Below, piece after piece: positions 19,861 to 28,342 of a stretch of 32,000 nucleotides of DNA (positions are counted from its first letter, which is position 1; each line of letters begins with the position of its first letter). The stretch is from assembly GCF_008065095.1 (NCBI RefSeq), contig NZ_CP042911.1:6990001-7022000 (forward strand), read 5' to 3'. The notes beneath the pieces are model-generated. The model was given only the letters and a program-made list of their open reading frames with translations, had not been told where the DNA came from and ran no database searches. The position numbers and the translations under genes were made by a program. The stretch comes from Gemmata obscuriglobus. GTDB taxonomy: Bacteria > Planctomycetota > Planctomycetia > Gemmatales > Gemmataceae.

Positions 19861-20205
19861 TCAGGCGGCGTCCGCCGGGGACGGTTGCAGCGGCCACAGC
19901 ACCCGGCGCAGGGTGTCGTCCGGGTCGTCTTCATCCGGCGATTCGAGTACGATCGTGACTCGGGGCAAGAGCCCGTGCCGCGCGAGAACGTCTTTCACGA
20001 CGATCAGTGCCGCGTCGGGGGCGGTGATGGATTCCAACGGAATGTTGATGAACCCCGCGTCGGTCGCCCCGCGTCCGCATTCTCCCGCGGCGCGCGCGAG
20101 AAGGGCCGCGTCGAGGTCGTGTTCGAGCCGAGTCCGCAGGTCGAAATCCTCGTCCGTTCCAAACGCCCCGTTCACCGGCAGCCGAACTACCATCCCGAAC
20201 GTCAT
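19861..20205 (-). CDS. Hypothetical acidic protein (114 aa)
   Basis: ATG at 20205 with GGAG 7 nt upstream. Composition is protein-like and I recognise no family. Confidence 0.5.
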   Translation of the reverse strand: MTFGMVVRLPVNGAFGTDEDFDLRTRLEHDLDAALLARAAGECGRGATDAGFINIPLESITAPDAALIVVKDVLARHGLLPRVTIVLESPDEDDPDDTLRRVLWPLQPSPADAA

Positions 20206-20282
20206 TGCGAGTCTCCATGACGACGTGATGTGCCATCCATGAAATTACCCGGTCGGGCGTGTGAAGAACAAGAACGTTGCGA

Positions 20283-20291
20283 CTCGATTTC
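20283..20291. repeat. Left copy of the 9-bp target-site duplication CTCGATTTC
   Basis: It is identical to 22024-22032 and lies immediately outside the left IS terminal inverted repeat. Confidence 0.75.
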
Positions 20292-22023
20292 GAGGTCACG
20301 CCACGGTTTGCAGTAGGCCTTGCGGTCCTCGGGGCACGGGATAGGAAAAGCGCGGGGCGATTTCGCCGCAACTCTCGTGCGGGGCGAGTCATGAGCACAC
20401 CGCGTTTCACGGCCGAGGAACTCGACCGCCTTCGAGCACTGGCGGCGGAGTGGGGCAAAATCGTTTCCAAGCGGGCGTTCGGGGACGACGGGCCGGGATT
20501 GGACGTGGACTTCCGGACGATGGAGCAGATCGCCACCGCGGCGGCACAAGGGCTCACCGAAGGTGCCCTCCAGCAGATGCTCCACCAGCAGGCCCGGAAG
20601 GTGCCCGAACAGGTTCCGTGTCCGGTGTGTGGCGAGCCGTGCCCGACCCGACCACACACCCGCACCCTGGCGGCCCAAGGGGCCACGGTTCAACAGGCCG
20701 AACGGATCGCCCATTGTCCCGCCTGCCGGCGGGACTTTTTCCCCCCTGCGGCTGGCCCTCGGGCTGGATGAGCACGGGTACAGTTCCTCGGTCGTTCAAC
20801 GCATCGTCACGGCCGCCGCCCGGTTCTCCTCGTTCCGGGATGCCGCCGAGGCGGTGCGGATGACCGGGGTCACGATCAGCGACAACCAGGTGCGCCGACT
20901 GGCTCACGAGGTCGGGCACGAGTTGATCGCGCGGCGCGATCGGAAGGCGGTCGAGCACCGGCGCCGCCAGTTAGAGCCGCGGACCGTGGTGGTGCCCGTG
21001 GCCGTGGTGGTCGAGGTCGATGGGGGGCGCATCCGCACCCGCGCCGCGGGCGCCGGCCCGGGTGTTCACGAGGCCCAGAACAAGGAGGACAAGGTGGCGT
21101 GCCTGGCCACCCTGAGTGGCCCCACGTTCGCCACGGACCCGTGCCCCGAGCCGCCCGAGTCGTTCCGCTGCCCGCGCCGGGTGCGGCGCCTGGTGCAGCA
21201 GATGAAGGGCCCGGCGGGCGAGGTCGCGCCCCCGGAAACCGTGGACGAATCGACGCCCCCGGTGCCGGCCGGGGAACCCGAAGGGGCCGAGCGGTGGTCC
21301 CCGACACGGTTGGTGCGGACGTGCGTGGCGAGCCTGGAGGGGAGTACCGCGTTCGGCCCGATGATGGCCGCCGAGGCCCAGGAGCGGCGCTTCTATGAGG
21401 CCCCGCGTCGGGCGTTCGTAGCCGACGGTCAGGCGTACAACTGGACCATCTGGCGCGGGTACTTTGGTGCGTTCGAGCCGATCGTGGATTTCCTGCACGC
21501 GGTGTGTTACGTGTTCTCGTCGGCCGCGGCCGTGAGCCCCGATGAGGCGTCGGGTTGGTCCCAATACGTGGCCTGGATGCGCGCGTGCTGGCAGGGTCGC
21601 GTTGGAGAAGTGCTCACCGAACTGGATCAGTGGCAGGCGCGGCTGGGTGAGCCCCCACCGGGTGAGGCGGCGACGGCCGAGGAGCGCCGGGACCCGCGCC
21701 GGGTGGTGGCGCACGCGCGGACCTACTTGGGGAACAATCGGGATCGCATGGCGTACCCGCGATACCGGCGCAACGGGCTACCGACGACGAGTAGCTGGTC
21801 GAGTCACTGGTGGGCGAGATCAACGCCCGGGTGAAGAGCACACAGAAGCATTGGACCCGGCCCGACGGTGCCGAATCGATCCTGCAACTGCGGGCCGCCG
21901 TGCTGAGCCAAGACGACCGGCTCCCACGGTTCTTCGCCGAACGGCCGGGCTCCTCGTTCCGCAAACGAGATACACTCTGCCACAAATCAGAGGGTGCCAC
22001 AGCACAAACCGTGGCGTGACCTC
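20292..22023 (+). mobile_element. 1732-bp insertion sequence, ISKra4-like
   Basis: The 19-bp terminal inverted repeats are perfect: GAGGTCACGCCACGGTTTG at 20292-20310, and its reverse complement at 22005-22023. The element is flanked by the 9-bp direct repeat CTCGATTTC. It encodes a single transposase whose stop lies inside the right repeat. Confidence 0.82.
20391..22019 (+). pseudogene. ISKra4-family-like transposase interrupted by two frameshifts
   Basis: Three consecutive frames read through a single protein.
- MSTPRFTAEEL...CPVCG...HCPACRRDFFP changes frame at the T5C6 run (20736-20746).
- It continues as LRLALGLDEHGYSS...YPRYRRNGLPTTSS, then changes frame near 21795.
- It ends as LVESLVGEINARVKSTQKHW...
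The zinc-ribbon plus FFP-L motif and the C-terminal motif match my recollection of ISKra4 transposases. Confidence 0.75.
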
Positions 22024-22032
22024 CTCGATTTC
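22024..22032. repeat. Right copy of the 9-bp target-site duplication CTCGATTTC
   Basis: It is identical to 20283-20291 and lies immediately outside the right IS terminal inverted repeat. Confidence 0.75.
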
Positions 22033-22082
22033 CGGGCGCTCTCGCCGCAACCGAATTGCAAGCACGAAACGGTCAACGGAAC

Positions 22083-23225
22083 TCATACGCTCGTGATCTG
22101 CTTCAGCGCGTCGGCCAGCACGTCGATATCGGCGGCGGTGCTGAACGGCCCCGGGCTGACCCGCACCAAGCCGTCAGGAGCGGTGCCAAGCGCCTTATGG
22201 ACGTACGGCGAACAGTGCAAGCCGGGGCGCACCGCGATGTTAAACGACTGGTCGAGCACACCCGCGAATTCCGGCGCCGGGAGGAGTTCACACCGAAAGC
22301 TCAGCGCACCGACGCGCTGTGCCTCGTTCGCGTGGCCGAACACCTCGAACCCGGGCAGTTCCGCAAGGGCGCCCCGCAGGCGCTCGCACAGCTCCGTTTC
22401 GTGCCGGCGGATGCTCTCGACGCCGCGCGCTTCGACGAAGTCCAGCCCGGCGACCAGCCCCACGACGCCGAGCACGTTGGGCGTACCACCTTCAAGGTAG
22501 TGCGGGAAGTCGGTTGGTTGCGTGGGGGTGAGCGAGTCGCCCCCGGTGCCGCCCTCGCGCCACGGCCGGAGCGTCACGCGCGGCCCGACGTACAGTGCGC
22601 CGGTCCCCGTGGGGCCGAGCAGCGACTTGTGCCCCGGGAACGCGAGCAGATCGATGTGCGCGGCCTGGACATCGACCGCGATCGCCCCCGCGGTCTGTGC
22701 GGCGTCGACCAGAAACAGCACGTCGCGCTCGCGGCAGATGCGCCCCACGTCGGTGATCGGCTGCACGGTGCCGAGCACGTTGCTGGCGTGGGTCATCGCG
22801 ACGAGCCGGGTCTTCGGCCCGATCGCGGCGCGCACCGCTTCGGGGTCGATCGTGCCGCCGCTGTCGGCCGGAACGCGTGTCAGGGTGATGCGCCCGGCTT
22901 CCGCGAGCGCCACCAGCGGGCGCGACACGCTGTTGTGTTCGAGGTCCGTGGTGATGACGTGGTCGCCGTCGTTCAGTACGCCCTTGAACGCCATGTTGAG
23001 GGCGTCGGTGCAGTTGAGCGTGAACGCCCAGCGTTCCGGGTTGCGGCCGTTGAAGAAGCGGTTGAGCCGGTGCCGCGCGTCGGAGAGGGCGTGCTCGGAC
23101 TCCAGCGCCATCCGGTGCCCCGAGCGCCCCGGGTTGGCGAGCGAGTGCCGCGCGAAGCGGTCCATCGCGACGTACACGCTCTCGGGCTTCGGGAAGCTGG
23201 TCGCGGCGTTATCGAGGTAGATCAT
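22083..23225 (-). CDS. Class V aminotransferase, cysteine desulfurase family (380 aa)
   Basis: MIYLDNAATSFPKP; the PLP-lysine motif FPGHKSLLGPTGTGALYV; and RPGLHCSPYVHK near the C-terminus. This resembles the stand-alone cysteine desulfurase / selenocysteine lyase-like subfamily. Confidence 0.85.
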   Translation of the reverse strand: MIYLDNAATSFPKPESVYVAMDRFARHSLANPGRSGHRMALESEHALSDARHRLNRFFNGRNPERWAFTLNCTDALNMAFKGVLNDGDHVITTDLEHNSVSRPLVALAEAGRITLTRVPADSGGTIDPEAVRAAIGPKTRLVAMTHASNVLGTVQPITDVGRICRERDVLFLVDAAQTAGAIAVDVQAAHIDLLAFPGHKSLLGPTGTGALYVGPRVTLRPWREGGTGGDSLTPTQPTDFPHYLEGGTPNVLGVVGLVAGLDFVEARGVESIRRHETELCERLRGALAELPGFEVFGHANEAQRVGALSFRCELLPAPEFAGVLDQSFNIAVRPGLHCSPYVHKALGTAPDGLVRVSPGPFSTAADIDVLADALKQITSV

Positions 23226-23539
23226 GATGAACCGTCGGCCGGCCCGAACCGGCTATGGAGGATCGCCCAGAGCGCAAAGCCGTGCCGCTCTTCTGGCAAC
23301 ACGCGGTCGAGAAACAGGTACAGCAGGTGTTGCTGTTCGCCCGACAAGTCCGCCAGGCGGAACCGCACGTCGCAAGCGTTGGAAACAGGCGGGTGGTAAC
23401 CGTGATCGACGAACCGCCACCATGTCAGCCGGTCCGCCCAGACCTCACGCGGGACGCCGACGGCGATGAGATCGGCCTCGTTAGCCGCCACCCACAGGCG
23501 CCACTCGCGTTCGCCCTGCTTGTCGCGGCGGAAGCTCAA
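23222..23539 (-). CDS. Hypothetical protein (105 aa), start uncertain
   Basis: The only start in the ORF is the TTG at 23539, which overlaps the Uma2 stop (TTGA). Its own stop overlaps the desulfurase ATG (ATGA). The sequence is Trp-rich and protein-like. I recognise no family. Confidence 0.45.
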   Translation of the reverse strand: MSFRRDKQGEREWRLWVAANEADLIAVGVPREVWADRLTWWRFVDHGYHPPVSNACDVRFRLADLSGEQQHLLYLFLDRVLPEERHGFALWAILHSRFGPADGSS

Positions 23540-24141
23540 GGCAGCAAATCGGTTACTGAGATTGTACCGACCTGCTCGCCGTCAACTACTACGGGCACCA
23601 CGTCGCCCGGGCCGTAGTCGGCGCGTGTCTTGTACGTCGGGTTCTTGCCGCCCTTCGGTTGCGTGTACACTTCCACGCACCGATCCACGAGATTTACGAT
23701 CCAGTACACGGGCAACTTGGCCTTCGCGTACTGCGGGATTTTCAACCGCCGGTCCTCGTCGAGCGAAGTGTCAGACACCTCAATGACGATCGTCACGTCC
23801 TTTTCCGTCGGGTGCCGCTTCGTGTACTGCTGTTTCGGCGCCTGGACGACGGCGACGTCCGGCTCAGGTGCGTTGTCGCCGGGGAGCCGCACCGGCAGTT
23901 GCGTGCGCGTCGTCCACTCGGCCGGGAGCAAATCGGCGATGGCGCTGTTGGTCACATCGACCGTACCGGCGTGCTGAGGGTTGTGGGCCATCTTGTCCAC
24001 CAGCCAGCCGTCGATCAGCTCGGAGCGGTCGCCGGGGGTGAAGAACCCGATCGCCGTCAGCCGCTCGTACTCCTCGATCGTGAACCGGTGAACGGAGCGC
24101 GGGGGGGCGTCGGCAGGCAGCGGCGCGACCTTCGTTCCCAT
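23536..24141 (-). CDS. Uma2-family (DUF820) putative endonuclease (201 aa)
   Basis: The start is the ATG at 24141 (MGTKVAPL...) with AGGAGG upstream. The sequence FTIEEYERL...ELIDG...PDVAVV...IVIEVSDTS...K...YA...YWIV shows the PD-(D/E)xK layout of Uma2 proteins. Confidence 0.8.
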   Translation of the reverse strand: MGTKVAPLPADAPPRSVHRFTIEEYERLTAIGFFTPGDRSELIDGWLVDKMAHNPQHAGTVDVTNSAIADLLPAEWTTRTQLPVRLPGDNAPEPDVAVVQAPKQQYTKRHPTEKDVTIVIEVSDTSLDEDRRLKIPQYAKAKLPVYWIVNLVDRCVEVYTQPKGGKNPTYKTRADYGPGDVVPVVVDGEQVGTISVTDLLP

Positions 24142-24322
24142 GCGGATACCTCCTACCGCAAGAATCTTACGCCCCACCCGGACGGCCGCGCACACCAGCG
24201 AGCCTCTGCCCCGCTGGTATGCGCCGGGCGTGCGTCCGGGGTTCACGCGGAACCGGCTCGCGTCGGTCATGCGTGCCAGAGACCCGCGCTCCGGCGCCGG
24301 CACCTTTCAACCGGATTCGGCA

Positions 24323-25378
24323 TCAGTGCCCGACGTACTTGGCGTACAGCGTGCGGGCCTTGTCCGGCTCGTCGGTGCCCTTGATGATCGCCCGGCCGTC
24401 CTCGAACACCGTGAACTCGTACGGGTCGCCGTTCTCGACCAGTTGGAACTTCAGCAGGAACTTGTTGTAGCTCACCTCGCCCGACTGCTTCAGCACGCCC
24501 GCGAGGTACGCGAAGTCGAGCTTGCCCTTCGTCCGGTGGCTCACTTGCACCGCGTTGCGGCCGCACAGCGACGTGGTCTGGGTGCCGTGCGCGCCGTCGA
24601 GCCACTCGAAGTTACGCTTCGCGCAGCACGGGCACTGCCCCTTGCGCCCCGCGAGCGGCGCCACCTTCACGCGCTTGTTGGTGTTCTCCCACACGTCGAG
24701 GATCAGCAGCTCGCGATTCACCGCGGCCTTGTTGCCGGACAGCAGCTTGATCGCCTCGGTGGCCTGGTAGCTTGCGACGATGGCGACCGCCGGCCCGAGC
24801 ACGCCGGCCGTCTCACACGTCCCGGTCTCGCCCGGGGCCGGTGCGGCCTCAAACACGCACCGCAGGCACGGCGTCTCGCCCGGGATGATGGTCATGCTCA
24901 TCCCCTGGCTGCCCACCGCCCCGCCGTAGACCCACGGCTTCCCGTGCTTGAACGCCACGTCGTTGATGAGGTAGCGGATCTCGAAGTTGTCGCTGCCGTC
25001 GAGGATCAGGTCGGCGCCGTCGCAGAAGTCCTCAATGTTGGTGCGGTTGATGTCCGCGACGATCGGCTCCACCGTGACCGACGAGTTGATCGCGCGCAGT
25101 TTGGTGGCGGCGGCCTCGGCCTTCGGCAGGTTGCTGGTCACGTCGGACTCGTCGAACAGCACCTGCCGCTGCAAGTTCGACGGCTCGACGAAGTCGCGGT
25201 CGATGACCCGCACGAACCCCACACCGGCGCGCACGAGGGTGTTGGCGAGCACGGTGCCGAGCGCGCCGCACCCGCAGAGCGTGACGCGGCTGGCGAGCAG
25301 TTTCTCCTGCCCACCTTTGCCCAGACCCGGGAACCGCATCTGGCGGGAGTAACGTTCGAGAGGGTTCGCGTCGTTCAT
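24323..25378 (-). CDS. ThiF/MoeB-family adenylyltransferase (E1-like), Bacillus MoeB/ThiF architecture, no rhodanese domain
   Basis: YSRQMRFPGLG, the nucleotide loop CGCGALGT, DRDFVEPSNLQRQ, the zinc motifs CLRC and CPCC, and a C-terminal LCGRNAVQV...FEDGRAIIKGT domain, as in B. subtilis MoeB. Confidence 0.9.
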   Translation of the reverse strand: MNDANPLERYSRQMRFPGLGKGGQEKLLASRVTLCGCGALGTVLANTLVRAGVGFVRVIDRDFVEPSNLQRQVLFDESDVTSNLPKAEAAATKLRAINSSVTVEPIVADINRTNIEDFCDGADLILDGSDNFEIRYLINDVAFKHGKPWVYGGAVGSQGMSMTIIPGETPCLRCVFEAAPAPGETGTCETAGVLGPAVAIVASYQATEAIKLLSGNKAAVNRELLILDVWENTNKRVKVAPLAGRKGQCPCCAKRNFEWLDGAHGTQTTSLCGRNAVQVSHRTKGKLDFAYLAGVLKQSGEVSYNKFLLKFQLVENGDPYEFTVFEDGRAIIKGTDEPDKARTLYAKYVGH

Positions 25379-25443
25379 GGTGCGTTAAGTGAGAAAGGGG
25401 AGCGGCTCGCGCTCCCCTTTGAGTGTGTGGAGGTGGCGCCGGC

Positions 25444-25797
25444 CTACAGGCCTATTTCATTCTCTTTGAGGAACTCTTGCAGGAATCGCACGTGCTGTTT
25501 GGGCCACTTCTCTTCCCGCGCGAACCCGACCAGCGCGGCCATGTCCTCACGTACCCGCCGCAGGTCCGGCCCGTCGAGCCGCTGCATGTACGAGACGAGG
25601 TAGTGCATCGCCTCCTCGGCCACCGCCGGGTTCAGCACCCCCGGCTCGGACCCTTCGAGGAAGACGTAGCTGTGGATCGCGGCGAGCAAGAGCGGGTGGA
25701 CGCCCAGCTCGGCCGGGATCAGCGGGAACACCGCGGCCCCGTCGGGCGCCTCTTCGGGCTTCTTCTCTTCGGCGGACATCCGGAGCCTCACGGTCAA
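25444..25797 (-). CDS. Hypothetical Cys-free helical protein (111-117 aa)
   Basis: The track start is a TTG at 25797, overlapping the upstream stop. A more likely start is the ATG at 25779 (MSAEEKKPEE...). GC3 bias is good and I recognise no family. Confidence 0.55.
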   Translation of the reverse strand: MTVRLRMSAEEKKPEEAPDGAAVFPLIPAELGVHPLLLAAIHSYVFLEGSEPGVLNPAVAEEAMHYLVSYMQRLDGPDLRRVREDMAALVGFAREEKWPKQHVRFLQEFLKENEIGL

Positions 25798-26072
25798 TCG
25801 CCGACGGCGTAAATCAGTACCAGCAGTTCGTCGTCGCCGTGAACCGCGTCAGGATCGTATCGCAACGACTCGCCGTCAGAATCGCGATACAGTTCGAACC
25901 ACCCGTGCGGGTTACCGTCCGCGTCGATCAGCCGCTCGCTCAGCGACGGGAACCGCGCCGCGAGTTCGTGGTAGATAGCGGCCCACGTCTTGGCCGCAAC
26001 TCGTACTTCAGCCGCCTTATGACCTTGCTGCTCGGGAGAAAAGTAGACGTTCGGCAGCAAAACGGTCGGCAT
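25794..26072 (-). CDS. Second beta-grasp (MoaD/ThiS-like) protein without a C-terminal Gly-Gly (92 aa)
   Basis: ATG 3 nt after the MoaD-like stop. Length and pattern follow MoaD: ...FPSLSERLIDADG...YDPDAVHGDDELLVLIYAVGD can be set against ...YPGVEPKLFADGK...MDTAVTDGVIVALIPAVAGG in the neighbour. It ends in GD rather than GG. Confidence 0.5.
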   Translation of the reverse strand: MPTVLLPNVYFSPEQQGHKAAEVRVAAKTWAAIYHELAARFPSLSERLIDADGNPHGWFELYRDSDGESLRYDPDAVHGDDELLVLIYAVGD

Positions 26073-26075
26073 ACG

Positions 26076-26348
26076 TCACCCGCCCGCGACGGCGGGAATG
26101 AGCGCCACGATCACGCCGTCGGTCACCGCGGTGTCCATCTCGTCGAGGTAGCGGATGTCCTCGTCGTTCAGGAACACGTTGATGTACGGGCGGAGCTTGC
26201 CGTCCGCGAACAGCTTGGGCTCGACCCCGGGGTACTGGCGCACGAGGTCCGCGAGCGCGGCCTTCACGGTCGCGCCGGTCACGTCCACTTCCGCCTTCCC
26301 GCCGGTCTGCTCGCGCATCGGGGTCGGGATCTGAACCTTGATCGCCAT
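26076..26348 (-). CDS. MoaD/ThiS-family sulfur-carrier protein ending in Gly-Gly (90 aa)
   Basis: MAIKVQIPTPMREQTGGKAEVDV...DGVIVALIPAVAGG-stop. Size, pattern and the terminal GG are typical of CysO/MoaD/ThiS-type carriers. Confidence 0.8.
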   Translation of the reverse strand: MAIKVQIPTPMREQTGGKAEVDVTGATVKAALADLVRQYPGVEPKLFADGKLRPYINVFLNDEDIRYLDEMDTAVTDGVIVALIPAVAGG

Positions 26349-26369
26349 ACGATCCTCATCTCGCTTCGG

Positions 26370-26738
26370 TCATCGTGGGATAATCAGCATTATCCACATT
26401 CCGATAGTTAACAGCACCGCTACGCCCAGCCACACACGCCACAGCAGCGGGAGTTGGCGGAACGCGATCAGAGCATTGTTCTCGGCGCTGGCGCGGGCCA
26501 CCATGCGGTTCGTCCACGGGAACAACAGCAAGCCGATGCCGGTCCAGGTTCCGCCGCCCGCGAACAGGCCTTGGAAAGCGATGACCGCACGAATCCGGAC
26601 CCGGCCGGCGCCCTCGACGAACACCATGACGGCCATGATCGCGCCGAGGAGCAGAAGTGCCGCGCCCAGCGGGCGCGACTTTTTGTGCGGTCGATCGGGG
26701 TCCGGGCCGGCGTCCGGCCGTTCGCCGGGCGGGCTCAC
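26370..26738 (-). CDS. Small predicted 3-TM membrane protein (~122 aa)
   Basis: The GTG at 26736-26738 overlaps the TGA of the ThrC-like gene (GTGA). Hydrophobic segments are LGAALLLLGAIMAVMVFV, VIAFQGLFAGGGTWTGIGLLLFPW and LLWRVWLGVAVLLTIGMWIMLII. This is the only sensible part of the 447-aa track ORF. The start could instead be an internal ATG. Confidence 0.5.
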   Translation of the reverse strand: MSPPGERPDAGPDPDRPHKKSRPLGAALLLLGAIMAVMVFVEGAGRVRIRAVIAFQGLFAGGGTWTGIGLLLFPWTNRMVARASAENNALIAFRQLPLLWRVWLGVAVLLTIGMWIMLIIPR

Positions 26739-28006
26739 ACCAGCACCGGTTCCGCAGCCCGCTCGCCCAGCCCGACCAGTTCCTTGAAGTCGGCCAGGGC
26801 CGGCTTGATGACCGCCGGCTCGTCGAGGGCGTCGAACACCGCGTCCTGGGTCTTGAGCCCGTTGCCGGTGATGCAGATCACGATCTCCTCGTGCCGCGGG
26901 ATGCGGCCCGACTCGATCAGCTTCTTGGCGACCGCCAGCGTCGTCCCGCCGGCCGTCTCCGCGAACACGCCCTCGGTCTTCGCGAGGAGCTGCATCCCCT
27001 CCACGATCTCCGCGTCGGTCACGTCCTCGGCCCAGCCGCCGGTCTCGCGGATCAGCTTCGCCGCGAAGTACCCGTCGGCCGGGTCGCCGATGGCGAGGCT
27101 CTTGCAGATCGTGTTGGGGGTCCGCACCGGCTTGTGCCGCTCGCGGTTGCTCTTCACGCAGTCCGCGATCGGGTTGCAGCCGGCGGCCTGCGCCCCGTAC
27201 ATCTTGGTCGTGACCGGTTGGTCCACGAGCCCGAGCTTGCTCAGCTCGGTGAACCCCTTGTGGATCTTGCCGATCAGCGCGCCGCCGGCCATCGGGCAGA
27301 CGACGTGCTGCGGGAACCGCCAGCCCAGGTCCTCGGCGATCTCGAACCCGACCGTCTTGGACCCTTCCGCGTAGAACGGGCGCAGGTTCACGTTCACGAA
27401 CCCCCACCCGTACTCCATCACGATCTGGGTGCAGAGCCGGTTCACCTGGTCGTAGGTGCCGGACACCTTCACGACCTTCGCGCCGTACACCGCGGTGCCC
27501 AGGATCTTGACCCGCTCGAGGTCGGCCGGGACCAGGATGGTGGCCTCGAGCCCGGCGGACGCGGACAGCGCCGCGACGCTGTTGGCGAGGTTCCCGGTGC
27601 TGGCGCACCCGACCATCCGCATCCCGAGTTCGCGGGCCTTCGAGAGCGCGACGGAGACGACGCGGTCCTTGAACGAGAGGGTCGGGAAGTTGACCGCGTC
27701 GTTCTTGATCCACAGCCGCTCGACGCCCAGCGCGTCCGCGAGCCGGTCGGCGCGGATCAGCGGGGTGCCGCCGACCTGCGGGCCGACGGTCGGTTCGCCG
27801 TCGAGCGGGAGCAGCTCACGGTACCGCCACATGTTTTTGGGGCGCGACTGGAACTTGGCCCGGCTGACGTGCGGCTTGATCTTTTCGTAATCGTAGGCGA
27901 CTTCGAGCGGCCCGGAATCGTCGGCGCAGAAGAAGTGCGCGCCCTTCGGGTACAGTTTGCCGCACACGCGACACTTCAGGCCCAGAACGAAGTCGTTACT
28001 CGCCAC
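26735..28006 (-). CDS. Threonine synthase-family PLP enzyme (ThrC homologue; MetM-like role proposed)
   Basis: The likely start is the GTG at 28006 with AGGGG 8 nt upstream; the track start is a TTG at 28036. The N-terminus is zinc-ribbon-like (CRVCG). The PLP-lysine motif is NFPTLSFKDR. GCASTGNLANS and the overall ThrC layout are present. Confidence 0.85.
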   Translation of the reverse strand: MASNDFVLGLKCRVCGKLYPKGAHFFCADDSGPLEVAYDYEKIKPHVSRAKFQSRPKNMWRYRELLPLDGEPTVGPQVGGTPLIRADRLADALGVERLWIKNDAVNFPTLSFKDRVVSVALSKARELGMRMVGCASTGNLANSVAALSASAGLEATILVPADLERVKILGTAVYGAKVVKVSGTYDQVNRLCTQIVMEYGWGFVNVNLRPFYAEGSKTVGFEIAEDLGWRFPQHVVCPMAGGALIGKIHKGFTELSKLGLVDQPVTTKMYGAQAAGCNPIADCVKSNRERHKPVRTPNTICKSLAIGDPADGYFAAKLIRETGGWAEDVTDAEIVEGMQLLAKTEGVFAETAGGTTLAVAKKLIESGRIPRHEEIVICITGNGLKTQDAVFDALDEPAVIKPALADFKELVGLGERAAEPVLV

Positions 28007-28176
28007 AGAAACACCCCTGGTGAGAGACAAACGCAACTCGCTTTTCGGAGCGAAGTTACGCGGTCGATTTCGTTACGGGGTGAGTGCTTAGCCAGATGCG
28101 CCGCAACGCGTCCCTGTGTGCGGCTGGGTGGTGAGATAAGAGTACGGCGGGGCCGTAAAGAACGGCCCTACACGAG

Positions 28177-28342
28177 ATCTTATCTTCCCCGGCCATACCA
28201 CGTCTCAGTTCGGGAGACGATGGCGTTTGCCGGGCAGGAGTTAGCACCTGCATCCGAGACCCGAGTTGTGTGCTCGAATCGAAACGGACCGGTTGCTGTG
28301 GCGTCGTCGGGCCTGGCCCCTCAGCCACTCTGGATAAGATAC
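28177..28342 (-). promoter_or_regulatory. SAM-I (S-box) riboswitch aptamer
   Basis: The minus strand reads AUCUUAUC-CAGAG-UGGCUGAGGGGCCAGGCCCGACGACGCCAC-AGCAACC...GGUGCUAACUCCUGCC...GAAGAUAAGAU. This matches the conserved SAM-I core (UUAUCaAGAG, GAGGGA, GGCCC, GA-k-turn, GCAACC, GGUGCcAAuUCC, AGAUAAG). P1 is an 8-bp helix, AUCUUAUC with GAUAAGAU. P3 and P4 appear extended. Confidence 0.8.

Follow-up and report, generated by a model that had tools for sequence, protein, structure and literature searches.

Does a gene annotated as threonine synthase, which lies behind a riboswitch for S-adenosylmethionine (SAM) and ahead of a gene for a small sulfur carrier protein, serve the synthesis of threonine at all? 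This question is raised by a locus of Gemmata obscuriglobus (NCBI RefSeq assembly GCF_008065095.1, contig NZ_CP042911.1), from which we analysed a stretch of 32,000 nucleotides (nt), positions 6,990,001 to 7,022,000, hereafter called the window; coordinates without a prefix are those of the window. An initial annotation made from the sequence alone had described here, on the minus strand and in this order, a SAM-I aptamer, a homologue of threonine synthase (ThrC), a protein with three transmembrane (TM) segments, a MoaD/ThiS-type carrier ending in Gly-Gly, a second beta-grasp-like protein, a helical protein free of cysteine and an adenylating enzyme (E1) of the MoeB/ThiF type. All these elements were recovered with Rfam, Pfam, NCBIfam and a survey of the open reading frames (ORFs). 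They belong to a continuous one-strand run from 28340 to 22083 (~6.3 kb), in which consecutive genes overlap or are separated by at most 65 nt.

We propose, with a probability of about 0.8, that this operon encodes a SAM-repressed, protein-thiocarboxylate-dependent synthesis of homocysteine of the MetM/MetO type. What we observe directly is what each part is, the conservation of the gene order, the presence of the riboswitch and the signature that marks the clade of the enzyme. The initial annotation had pointed to such a pathway from Streptomyces, and correctly so according to the GapMind 2026 preprint and PMC12172450. In Streptomyces albulus, the pathway consists of the carrier MetO, the hydrolase Mec, the ligase MoeZ and the enzyme MetM (Hasebe et al. 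2024, Appl Environ Microbiol 90:e01247-24, as outlined in the GapMind 2026 preprint). The same preprint describes MetM as a homocysteine synthase dependent on the thiocarboxylate of MetO and as a homologue of threonine synthase that is ‘often misannotated as such’. The S. albulus metM gene is preceded by a SAM riboswitch, and an enzyme of Microcystis aeruginosa is 51.6% identical to MetM, its neighbour being 47% identical to MetO (both from PMC12172450). Judged by its sequence, the Gemmata locus is a member of this pathway type, which has been known since 2024.

The MetM-like enzyme and its active-site signature

The enzyme of the window belongs to the PALP family (E value (E) 1e-70) and is 100% identical to the NCBI entry ‘threonine synthase [Gemmata obscuriglobus]’. 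Its relatives were collected by a scan with an enzyme profile (alignment of 9 sequences) using one genome per species. The scan returned 80 loci with enzyme homologues of 53-89% identity; loci are cited below by L numbers. The 80 are spread over Planctomycetota, Verrucomicrobiota, Acidobacteriota, Cyanobacteria (including Microcystis), Nitrospirota, Desulfobacterota, Methylomirabilota and Actinomycetota, and none of them is from Streptomyces.

The two diagnostic loops of the window enzyme read SFKDRVVS and STGNLANS, and the canonical ThrC loops SFKDRGM and STGNT(S/A)A are not present in it. The combination of SFKDRV(V/T) after the lysine that binds pyridoxal 5'-phosphate (PLP) with STGNLA in the next loop was found in all carrier-linked enzymes (87/87, the window's included). 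The second ThrC paralogues of L071 (Nitrospirota) and L082 (Nostoc) have SFKDRGMT and STGNTSA(S/A) at these positions, and Aquifex ThrC (2zsj) has the canonical SFKDRGM and STGNTSA. Among representatives at 50% identity the motif switch tracks a drop in identity to the query, and in L071 the carrier-linked copy is 53% and the adjoining canonical copy 33% identical to the window protein. The enzyme thus carries a clade-specific active-site signature and appears not to be a housekeeping ThrC. The Nitrospirota cluster (L071:178-5723) comprises genes for a MetM-like enzyme, MetO, a NIL domain protein, a canonical ThrC (SFKDRGMT, STGNTSAS) and aspartate kinase.

Compared with the Microcystis novacekii homologue (L068), the window enzyme shows 54% identity over the full length and 57% in the best segment. 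We infer direct orthology to the S. albulus pair MetM/MetO, the sequence link running via the Microcystis homologue. The N-terminus of the enzyme (27925-27990, minus strand) corresponds to a region with a zinc-ribbon-like CxxC...CxxC arrangement in most members of the clade; the Gemmata and Telmatocola enzymes have CxxC...CxDD and have lost the fourth cysteine.

Linkage to the carrier and to SAM riboswitches

The carrier matches PF02597 (E 1.4e-13) and ends in PAVAGG right before the stop codon, so that its Gly-Gly is free. The ending PA(V/I)AGG is kept across phyla in most of the loci that have a carrier. Neighbours were counted by seeded tblastn on the loci; clustering of longest ORFs in the neighbourhoods, into which antisense ORFs intrude in high-GC loci, was used solely for choosing families for Pfam. 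A carrier homologue lies downstream of the enzyme gene on the same strand in 73/80 loci. In other loci, genes of sulfur assimilation and of the aspartate pathway are also found nearby; those that recur encode a CysA-type ABC ATPase, a sulfite reductase-like protein, 3'-phosphoadenosine 5'-phosphosulfate (PAPS) reductase and aspartate kinase, and further an Rrf2 regulator and Prok-JAB, JAB genes standing beside the enzyme-carrier pair in 11 other loci. In an Actinomycetota metagenome-assembled genome (MAG), the carrier is fused to the E1 in a single 352-aa (amino acid) ORF with the arrangement ThiS domain-GG-ThiF domain (L075:8253-9308).

The aptamer of the window matches the full SAM-I model RF00162 (1-108) with 73.8 bits versus a gathering score of 44.4 (E 1e-15), and an aptamer is present in the same position in all relatives from the Gemmatales. 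When 85 loci were searched with a covariance model derived from eight SAM-I aptamers, 36 of them, from several phyla, showed a SAM-I element directly ahead of the enzyme gene; no cyanobacterial locus was among these 36. Since the linkage to the carrier and the presence of the riboswitch recur at these frequencies across phyla, SAM control and carrier linkage are regarded as properties of the whole clade. Together with the match to the published MetM/MetO pair, these counts lend comparative support to the proposal of the initial annotation that, under SAM control, a thiocarboxylated Gly-Gly carrier would donate sulfur to the ThrC-fold enzyme. In the acidobacterial locus L036, a SAM-II riboswitch (SAM_alpha, RF00521, 37.5 bits; L036:5734-5807) replaces SAM-I ~1.2 kb upstream of the MetM-like gene, which suggests that different classes of SAM riboswitch may control one pathway.

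Conservation of the gene order had been put forward as a check of the operon. In Telmatocola, G. palustris, G. algarum (JC717), G. massiliana and eight MAGs, the riboswitch is followed by the genes for the enzyme, the carrier, the helical protein, the E1 and the desulfurase in this sequence; the TM ORF and the second beta-grasp ORF are not part of the conserved order.

Threonine synthase or homocysteine synthase

The assignment to homocysteine synthesis has to be weighed against the explanation that the enzyme is a genuine, possibly bifunctional, threonine synthase and that carrier, E1 and desulfurase serve molybdopterin or thiamin synthesis or tRNA thiolation. Several observations speak against homocysteine synthesis. 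The NCBIfam thrC equivalog model TIGR00260 scores the carrier-linked enzymes above its cutoff, the window enzyme reaching 287 bits versus a cutoff of 167, and the closest solved structures to the window enzyme are all threonine synthases. The Microcystis homologue, when assayed, had threonine synthase and threonine deaminase activity in vitro, and methionine was not raised (as reported in PMC12172450). Furthermore, as the initial annotation had already noted, neither the JAB/JAMM families nor rhodanese families were matched among the 19 window ORFs scanned, which leaves two steps of the published scheme without an assigned protein here.

Against these points stand the SAM riboswitch ahead of the gene in so many loci from several phyla, the tie between the carrier and enzyme genes, the active-site loops that differ from those of the canonical ThrC coexisting in L071 and L082, and the failure to find genes for thiamin, molybdopterin or tRNA thiolation in the window. 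We therefore consider a genuine threonine synthase improbable at this locus. The model TIGR00260 was rejected as a discriminator of MetM and ThrC, since it scores both groups: the Microcystis MetM-like protein (L068:4309-5562) obtains 354 bits, more than the 320 bits of a canonical ThrC paralogue. The annotation ‘threonine synthase’ is explained by this inability of the model to separate the two groups, and automatic annotation will go on giving the clade that name.

E1 enzyme and cysteine desulfurase

The E1 gene begins 65 nt past the gene of the helical protein. Its product matches ThiF (E 4.5e-76) with no other domain match, fits the MoeB/ThiF subfamily model NF009123 over its full length and is 100% identical to an NCBI protein of G. 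obscuriglobus named MoeZ. The model for MoeZ-type E1 proteins, in which the E1 is fused to a rhodanese, gave 162 bits versus a cutoff of 647 (NF005902). Invariant cysteines of the E1 are found in C171xxC174, at C188 (loop TCETAGV), in C249xxC252 and at C272.

The last 97 residues of the E1 (255-351; 24326-24616, minus strand) match no Pfam family. A structure modelled from C-terminal segments of database proteins has the topology beta-alpha-beta4-alpha with a predicted local distance difference test (pLDDT) score of 80.5. The top 40 matches in Foldseek were nearly all half-domains of TATA-binding protein (TBP), with a probability of ~1, a template-modelling score (query) of ~0.55 and an E of ~0.02, and a weak profile match of the domain to TBP agrees with this. 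The domain has an invariant cysteine in the motif LCGRN(A/S)VQ. It is thus predicted to be TBP-like and not a rhodanese, despite the name MoeZ given by NCBI.

The desulfurase matches PF00266 (E 9e-90) and TIGR01977 (404 bits versus a cutoff of 377). Its motifs GHK and RPGLHC are those which, from SufS and NifS, we take to be expected of an active enzyme. The gene lies 1.1 kb downstream of the E1 gene, a Uma2 gene and a 105-aa ORF standing in between. The initial annotation had placed it at ~1 kb, which proved accurate, and had underrated it, as the gene after the E1 codes for a desulfurase in each of the Gemmatales loci, and likewise in L015, L051 and L054. The order in the acidobacterial locus L051 is riboswitch, E1, desulfurase, enzyme. 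Comparison of the loci identifies the downstream cysteine desulfurase gene as a conserved member of the operon. Beyond it, the window has ~1.9 kb (20206-22082) before the next conserved gene, a 114-aa ORF (19861-20205); the corresponding distance in G. algarum (L005) is 135 nt. Only doubtful ORFs lie in the additional DNA, one of them with a weak match to a LysR-type helix-turn-helix domain (20.5 bits, below cutoff).

The carrier also brings in the explanation that the operon makes cysteine or another thiol metabolite, in the manner of CysM/CysO or of thiosugar or thio-acid natural products, and not homocysteine. The carrier is named ‘CysO’ by NCBI, and its nearest solved structures are M. tuberculosis CysO (3dwg_C) and the ThiS/MoaD-type carrier of the BexX complex (4n6e_B), both with E ~1e-18. 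The PLP enzyme, though, is of the ThrC type and not of the CysK/CysM type, the cysteine synthase A model giving just 38.7 bits versus a cutoff of 387. The control is entirely by SAM riboswitches, and a cysteine desulfurase as the sulfur source of the operon would make cysteine synthesis circular. A product other than homocysteine is for these reasons very improbable.

Insertions in the operon

Three small proteins were regarded as operon components in the initial annotation. One could accordingly see the TM ORF, the second beta-grasp protein and the helical protein as working parts of a larger, new sulfur-relay machine. Their genes share a strand and either overlap the adjoining genes or lie a few bases away from them. 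Like the other small ORFs of the operon they are annotated as proteins in the NCBI G. obscuriglobus genomes, and the helical protein is strongly conserved. The third-position GC content (GC3) favours coding in the frames of Table 1, with 0.89-0.96 for the core genes and lower values for the TM ORF (0.80) and the second beta-grasp ORF (0.71).

The start codon of the TM ORF lies in a GTGA overlap with the stop codon of the enzyme gene. This ORF had no family match, a tblastn search of 87 related loci found nothing similar to it, and it forms a singleton cluster at 90% identity in the protein collection. Even G. algarum has no counterpart: its DNA is 97-99% identical to the window on the flanks, and an unrelated 136 nt stand in place of the 388 nt bearing the TM ORF. 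The slot is empty in Telmatocola, and in G. palustris, G. massiliana and L007 the slot between the enzyme and carrier genes is occupied by an unrelated multi-pass membrane protein of 454-458 aa that is PMT_2-like (PMT_2 match in L007; L003:9269-10645, L006:4033-5409 and L007:4045-5409). Neither protein nor DNA similarity was seen between the TM ORF and these genes, and its origin as a remnant of a PMT_2-like gene was rejected. The TM ORF is probably a strain-specific filler of a hypervariable spacer and not a component of the pathway.

The second beta-grasp ORF starts 3 nt after the carrier gene. A comparison of its product with the MetO profile (hhalign) gave a probability of 94.8% and E 5.4e-8. 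The window protein ends in VGD, and its homologues terminate in GD or GC, not in GG. At this position, G. massiliana (33% identity) and L008 (39%) alone have the ORF, and L007 holds part of it; tblastn and DNA alignment did not find it in G. algarum, G. palustris and Telmatocola. In G. algarum, 24 nt correspond to the 312 nt bearing it in the window. An identity of 33-39% between species whose carriers share 83-87% indicates divergence far faster than that of its neighbours. The protein can be taken as a true carrier homologue, a degenerate and fast-evolving paralogue of MetO.

A third site of insertion appears to lie between the E1 and desulfurase genes, a slot that looks like an insertion hotspot within the operon. 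In the window it holds the Uma2 gene (PF05685, E 2.6e-28) and the 105-aa ORF, which has no family match. Uma2 genes occupy the slot in eight related loci (L005, L007-L013), with or without the partner of ~105 aa, at 37-83% identity versus 70-99% for the flanking genes. A homologue of the 105-aa ORF, 59% identical, stands beside Uma2 in L008. By tblastn, Uma2 was not found in the loci of G. palustris, G. massiliana and Telmatocola or in L014. In Telmatocola (L001:11158-11726) the slot contains two small ORFs resembling a toxin-antitoxin pair, and in some other loci it is empty.

The comparison of loci thus presents the TM ORF, the second beta-grasp ORF and the Uma2 and 105-aa pair as insertions riding in the operon. 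With the TM ORF lacking counterparts and the second beta-grasp ORF, patchy and devoid of GG, missing from G. algarum, G. palustris and Telmatocola, a relay machine built from all three small proteins is very improbable. What stands of the earlier suggestion is the conserved helical protein.

The helical protein and the NIL domain

The gene of the helical protein lies between the carrier and E1 genes in every Gemmatales-type locus examined (L001-L014; 40-95% identity). The proteins share 43 invariant columns including the N-terminal motif GAAVFP.IP.E.G. An AlphaFold2 model shows four helices (pLDDT 86). Foldseek comparison of the model with PDB gave no match at E <=0.001, the top matches being nuclear receptor domains and Erv1 with template-modelling scores <0.33. 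Pfam searches with two members at E up to 10, and then with 28 members, found no family. The label DUF1844, which UniProt gives to the G. algarum orthologue, was not reproduced in these scans.

The protein was found in Gemmatales-type loci only, always in the slot between carrier and E1. In 24/80 loci, belonging to other phyla, the same slot holds a NIL domain (PF09383), either fused after the GG of the carrier (L017, L021, L023, L028, L032, L047, L056 and L057) or as a separate 84-aa protein, as in L054 (L054:8826-9077), a planctomycete with the same type of E1 and desulfurase, and in others. The helical protein and NIL never occurred together in the loci examined. Several loci with a fused NIL domain also carry a Prok-JAB gene; a JAB protease would be needed for such fused carriers because their GG must be exposed. 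The available parts of the GapMind preprint and PMC12172450 contain no mention of a link between NIL and the MetM/MetO pair.

Since the helical protein has no cysteine, it cannot relay a persulfide, and it is most likely an accessory partner, an adaptor or a regulator. As a more speculative idea, which we hold to be possible although the odds are against it, the protein could be an obligatory third component of the MetM/MetO system and a non-homologous replacement of the NIL protein. Its task would then be to link the carrier with the desulfurase and with the rhodanese-less E1 that bears the TBP-like domain, or else to curb the pathway upon sensing methionine or homocysteine.

The leader and an internal hairpin

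The element TCTTATCTC is invariant in 7 leaders, from Gemmata to Telmatocola, and the hairpin intervening between it and the aptamer varies. It is predicted to be able to pair with the 3' strand of the aptamer helix P1, so the leader has an alternative fold, and in the minimum-free-energy fold TCTTATCTC is paired with GAAGAUAAGA. A terminator scan, folding and comparison of the leaders revealed no clear shared terminator and no shared helix sequestering the ribosome-binding site.

The 65 nt ahead of the E1 gene contain a further hairpin, followed by UUUCUC. It has a core stem of 8 bp, which the flanking A-U pairs are predicted to lengthen to 11 bp and ~-23 kcal/mol, and the terminator scan does not flag it. 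The hairpin is retained with altered sequence in G. algarum, G. palustris and G. massiliana (four Gemmata species in all); in L007 another strong hairpin, of a different kind, takes its place. The hairpin might serve as an internal attenuator or as an RNA-stability element, tuning the balance between enzyme and carrier on one side and E1 and desulfurase on the other. The coordinates of all features are listed in Table 1.

Table 1 Features of the Gemmata obscuriglobus operon, in order of transcription (positions in the window)
Feature	Position	Strand	Basis
SAM-I (S-box) riboswitch aptamer	28177-28340	-	Rfam RF00162
Anti-P1 element TCTTATCTC of the expression platform	28133-28141	-	Leader comparison and fold
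MetM-like ThrC-fold PLP enzyme, 423 aa from GTG at 28006 (NCBI form)	26735-28006	-	PALP, TIGR00260
Longest ORF of the ThrC-fold enzyme, TTG start at 28036	26735-28036	-	
122-aa hydrophobic (3-TM) ORF, WP_010044948.1	26370-26738	-	ORF, NCBI annotation
MetO-like ThiS/MoaD sulfur carrier, 90 aa	26076-26348	-	PF02597
92-aa second beta-grasp ORF, putative degenerate carrier paralogue	25794-26072	-	hhalign
Cys-free four-helix protein, 111 aa (NCBI, ATG at 25779), WP_010044952.1	25444-25779	-	Conservation, AlphaFold2
Longest ORF of the Cys-free helical protein	25444-25797	-	
GC-rich hairpin between the helical-protein and E1 genes	25397-25417	-	Predicted helix
E1-type adenylyltransferase, 351 aa, ThiF plus ~100-aa C-terminal domain	24323-25378	-	ThiF, NF009123
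Uma2-family (putative restriction endonuclease-like) gene, apparent inserted cassette	23536-24303	-	PF05685
105-aa ORF accompanying Uma2	23222-23539	-	No family match
Class-V aminotransferase-fold cysteine desulfurase family gene	22083-23225	-	PF00266, TIGR01977

Proposed pathway and its significance

The chemical steps, the path of sulfur from the desulfurase to the carrier and the release of homocysteine from the carrier are what we infer from the composition of the operon. At low SAM, the SAM-I riboswitch would permit expression of the unit. The E1 would adenylate the C-terminal Gly-Gly of the MetO-like carrier. The desulfurase would draw sulfur from cysteine as a persulfide and hand it on, possibly via a cysteine of the E1 (perhaps C188 or C272), the carrier being turned into a thiocarboxylate. 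The MetM-like enzyme would then remove the phosphate from O-phosphohomoserine and add the thiocarboxylate sulfur at the gamma carbon, and homocysteine would be released and methylated to methionine.

The new contribution of this study is modest: it consists of the Gemmatales operon architecture, the helical protein in the slot of NIL, the predicted TBP-like domain of the E1 and the sequence signature distinguishing MetM-like enzymes from ThrC. Gemmata and its relatives, as well as many Verrucomicrobiota, Acidobacteriota, Nitrospirota and Cyanobacteria with the same signature, probably make homocysteine by the MetM/MetO route with an enzyme labelled ‘threonine synthase’. The motifs SFKDRV(V/T) and STGNLA together with an adjoining carrier gene could serve as a practical fix of the annotation and fill gaps in methionine pathways. 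The Gemmatales operon unites the riboswitch with the genes of the enzyme, the carrier, the E1 and the desulfurase and would be convenient for reconstitution. It raises the questions of the role of the helical protein and of NIL in the same slot, and of how sulfur is delivered to a rhodanese-less E1.

Comparison with known systems

In the ThiS/ThiF and MoaD/MoeB systems, sulfur carriers are fed by cysteine desulfurases. The Gemmata operon resembles them in having a ThiF-family E1 with two CxxC motifs and a loop cysteine, and a desulfurase as the presumed source of sulfur. It differs from them in the acceptor enzyme and the product, in the additional TBP-like domain predicted for the E1 and in a desulfurase of the uncharacterised TIGR01977 subfamily.

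In the CysO-CysM-MoeZ-Mec system of Mycobacterium tuberculosis, a thiocarboxylated carrier attacks a PLP-bound intermediate derived from an O-phospho amino acid. The Gemmata carrier is close to CysO (E 1.3e-18) and would follow the same thiocarboxylate logic. Unlike in M. tuberculosis, the enzyme has the ThrC fold, the substrate would be a four-carbon compound, the control is by SAM, and neither Mec nor a rhodanese is found in the window.

A thiocarboxylate route to homocysteine has been described for Wolinella succinogenes, with the components HcyS, HcyF, HcyD and MetY (Krishnamoorthy and Begley 2011, as summarised in PMC5764234). To the extent that this summary describes it, that system shares with the Gemmata operon the Gly-Gly carrier, the E1 and homocysteine as the product, which is proposed in our case. 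In Wolinella, however, the route depends on MetY, an O-acetylhomoserine sulfhydrylase, and on a JAMM protease, and neither of these is found in the Gemmata window.

The closest counterpart is the MetM/MetO system of S. albulus, as far as the available sources cover it (GapMind 2026 preprint, PMC12172450). That system uses MoeZ, an E1-rhodanese fusion, and the JAMM hydrolase Mec, whereas the Gemmata operon has its own rhodanese-less E1 with a TBP-like domain and no JAMM gene nearby. Unlike the S. albulus scheme as cited, the Gemmata operon adds a cysteine desulfurase and a conserved four-helix protein. The two systems have in common a ThrC homologue encoded beside a ThiS/MoaD carrier gene, an upstream SAM riboswitch, the annotation of the enzyme as threonine synthase and a carrier that needs an E1.

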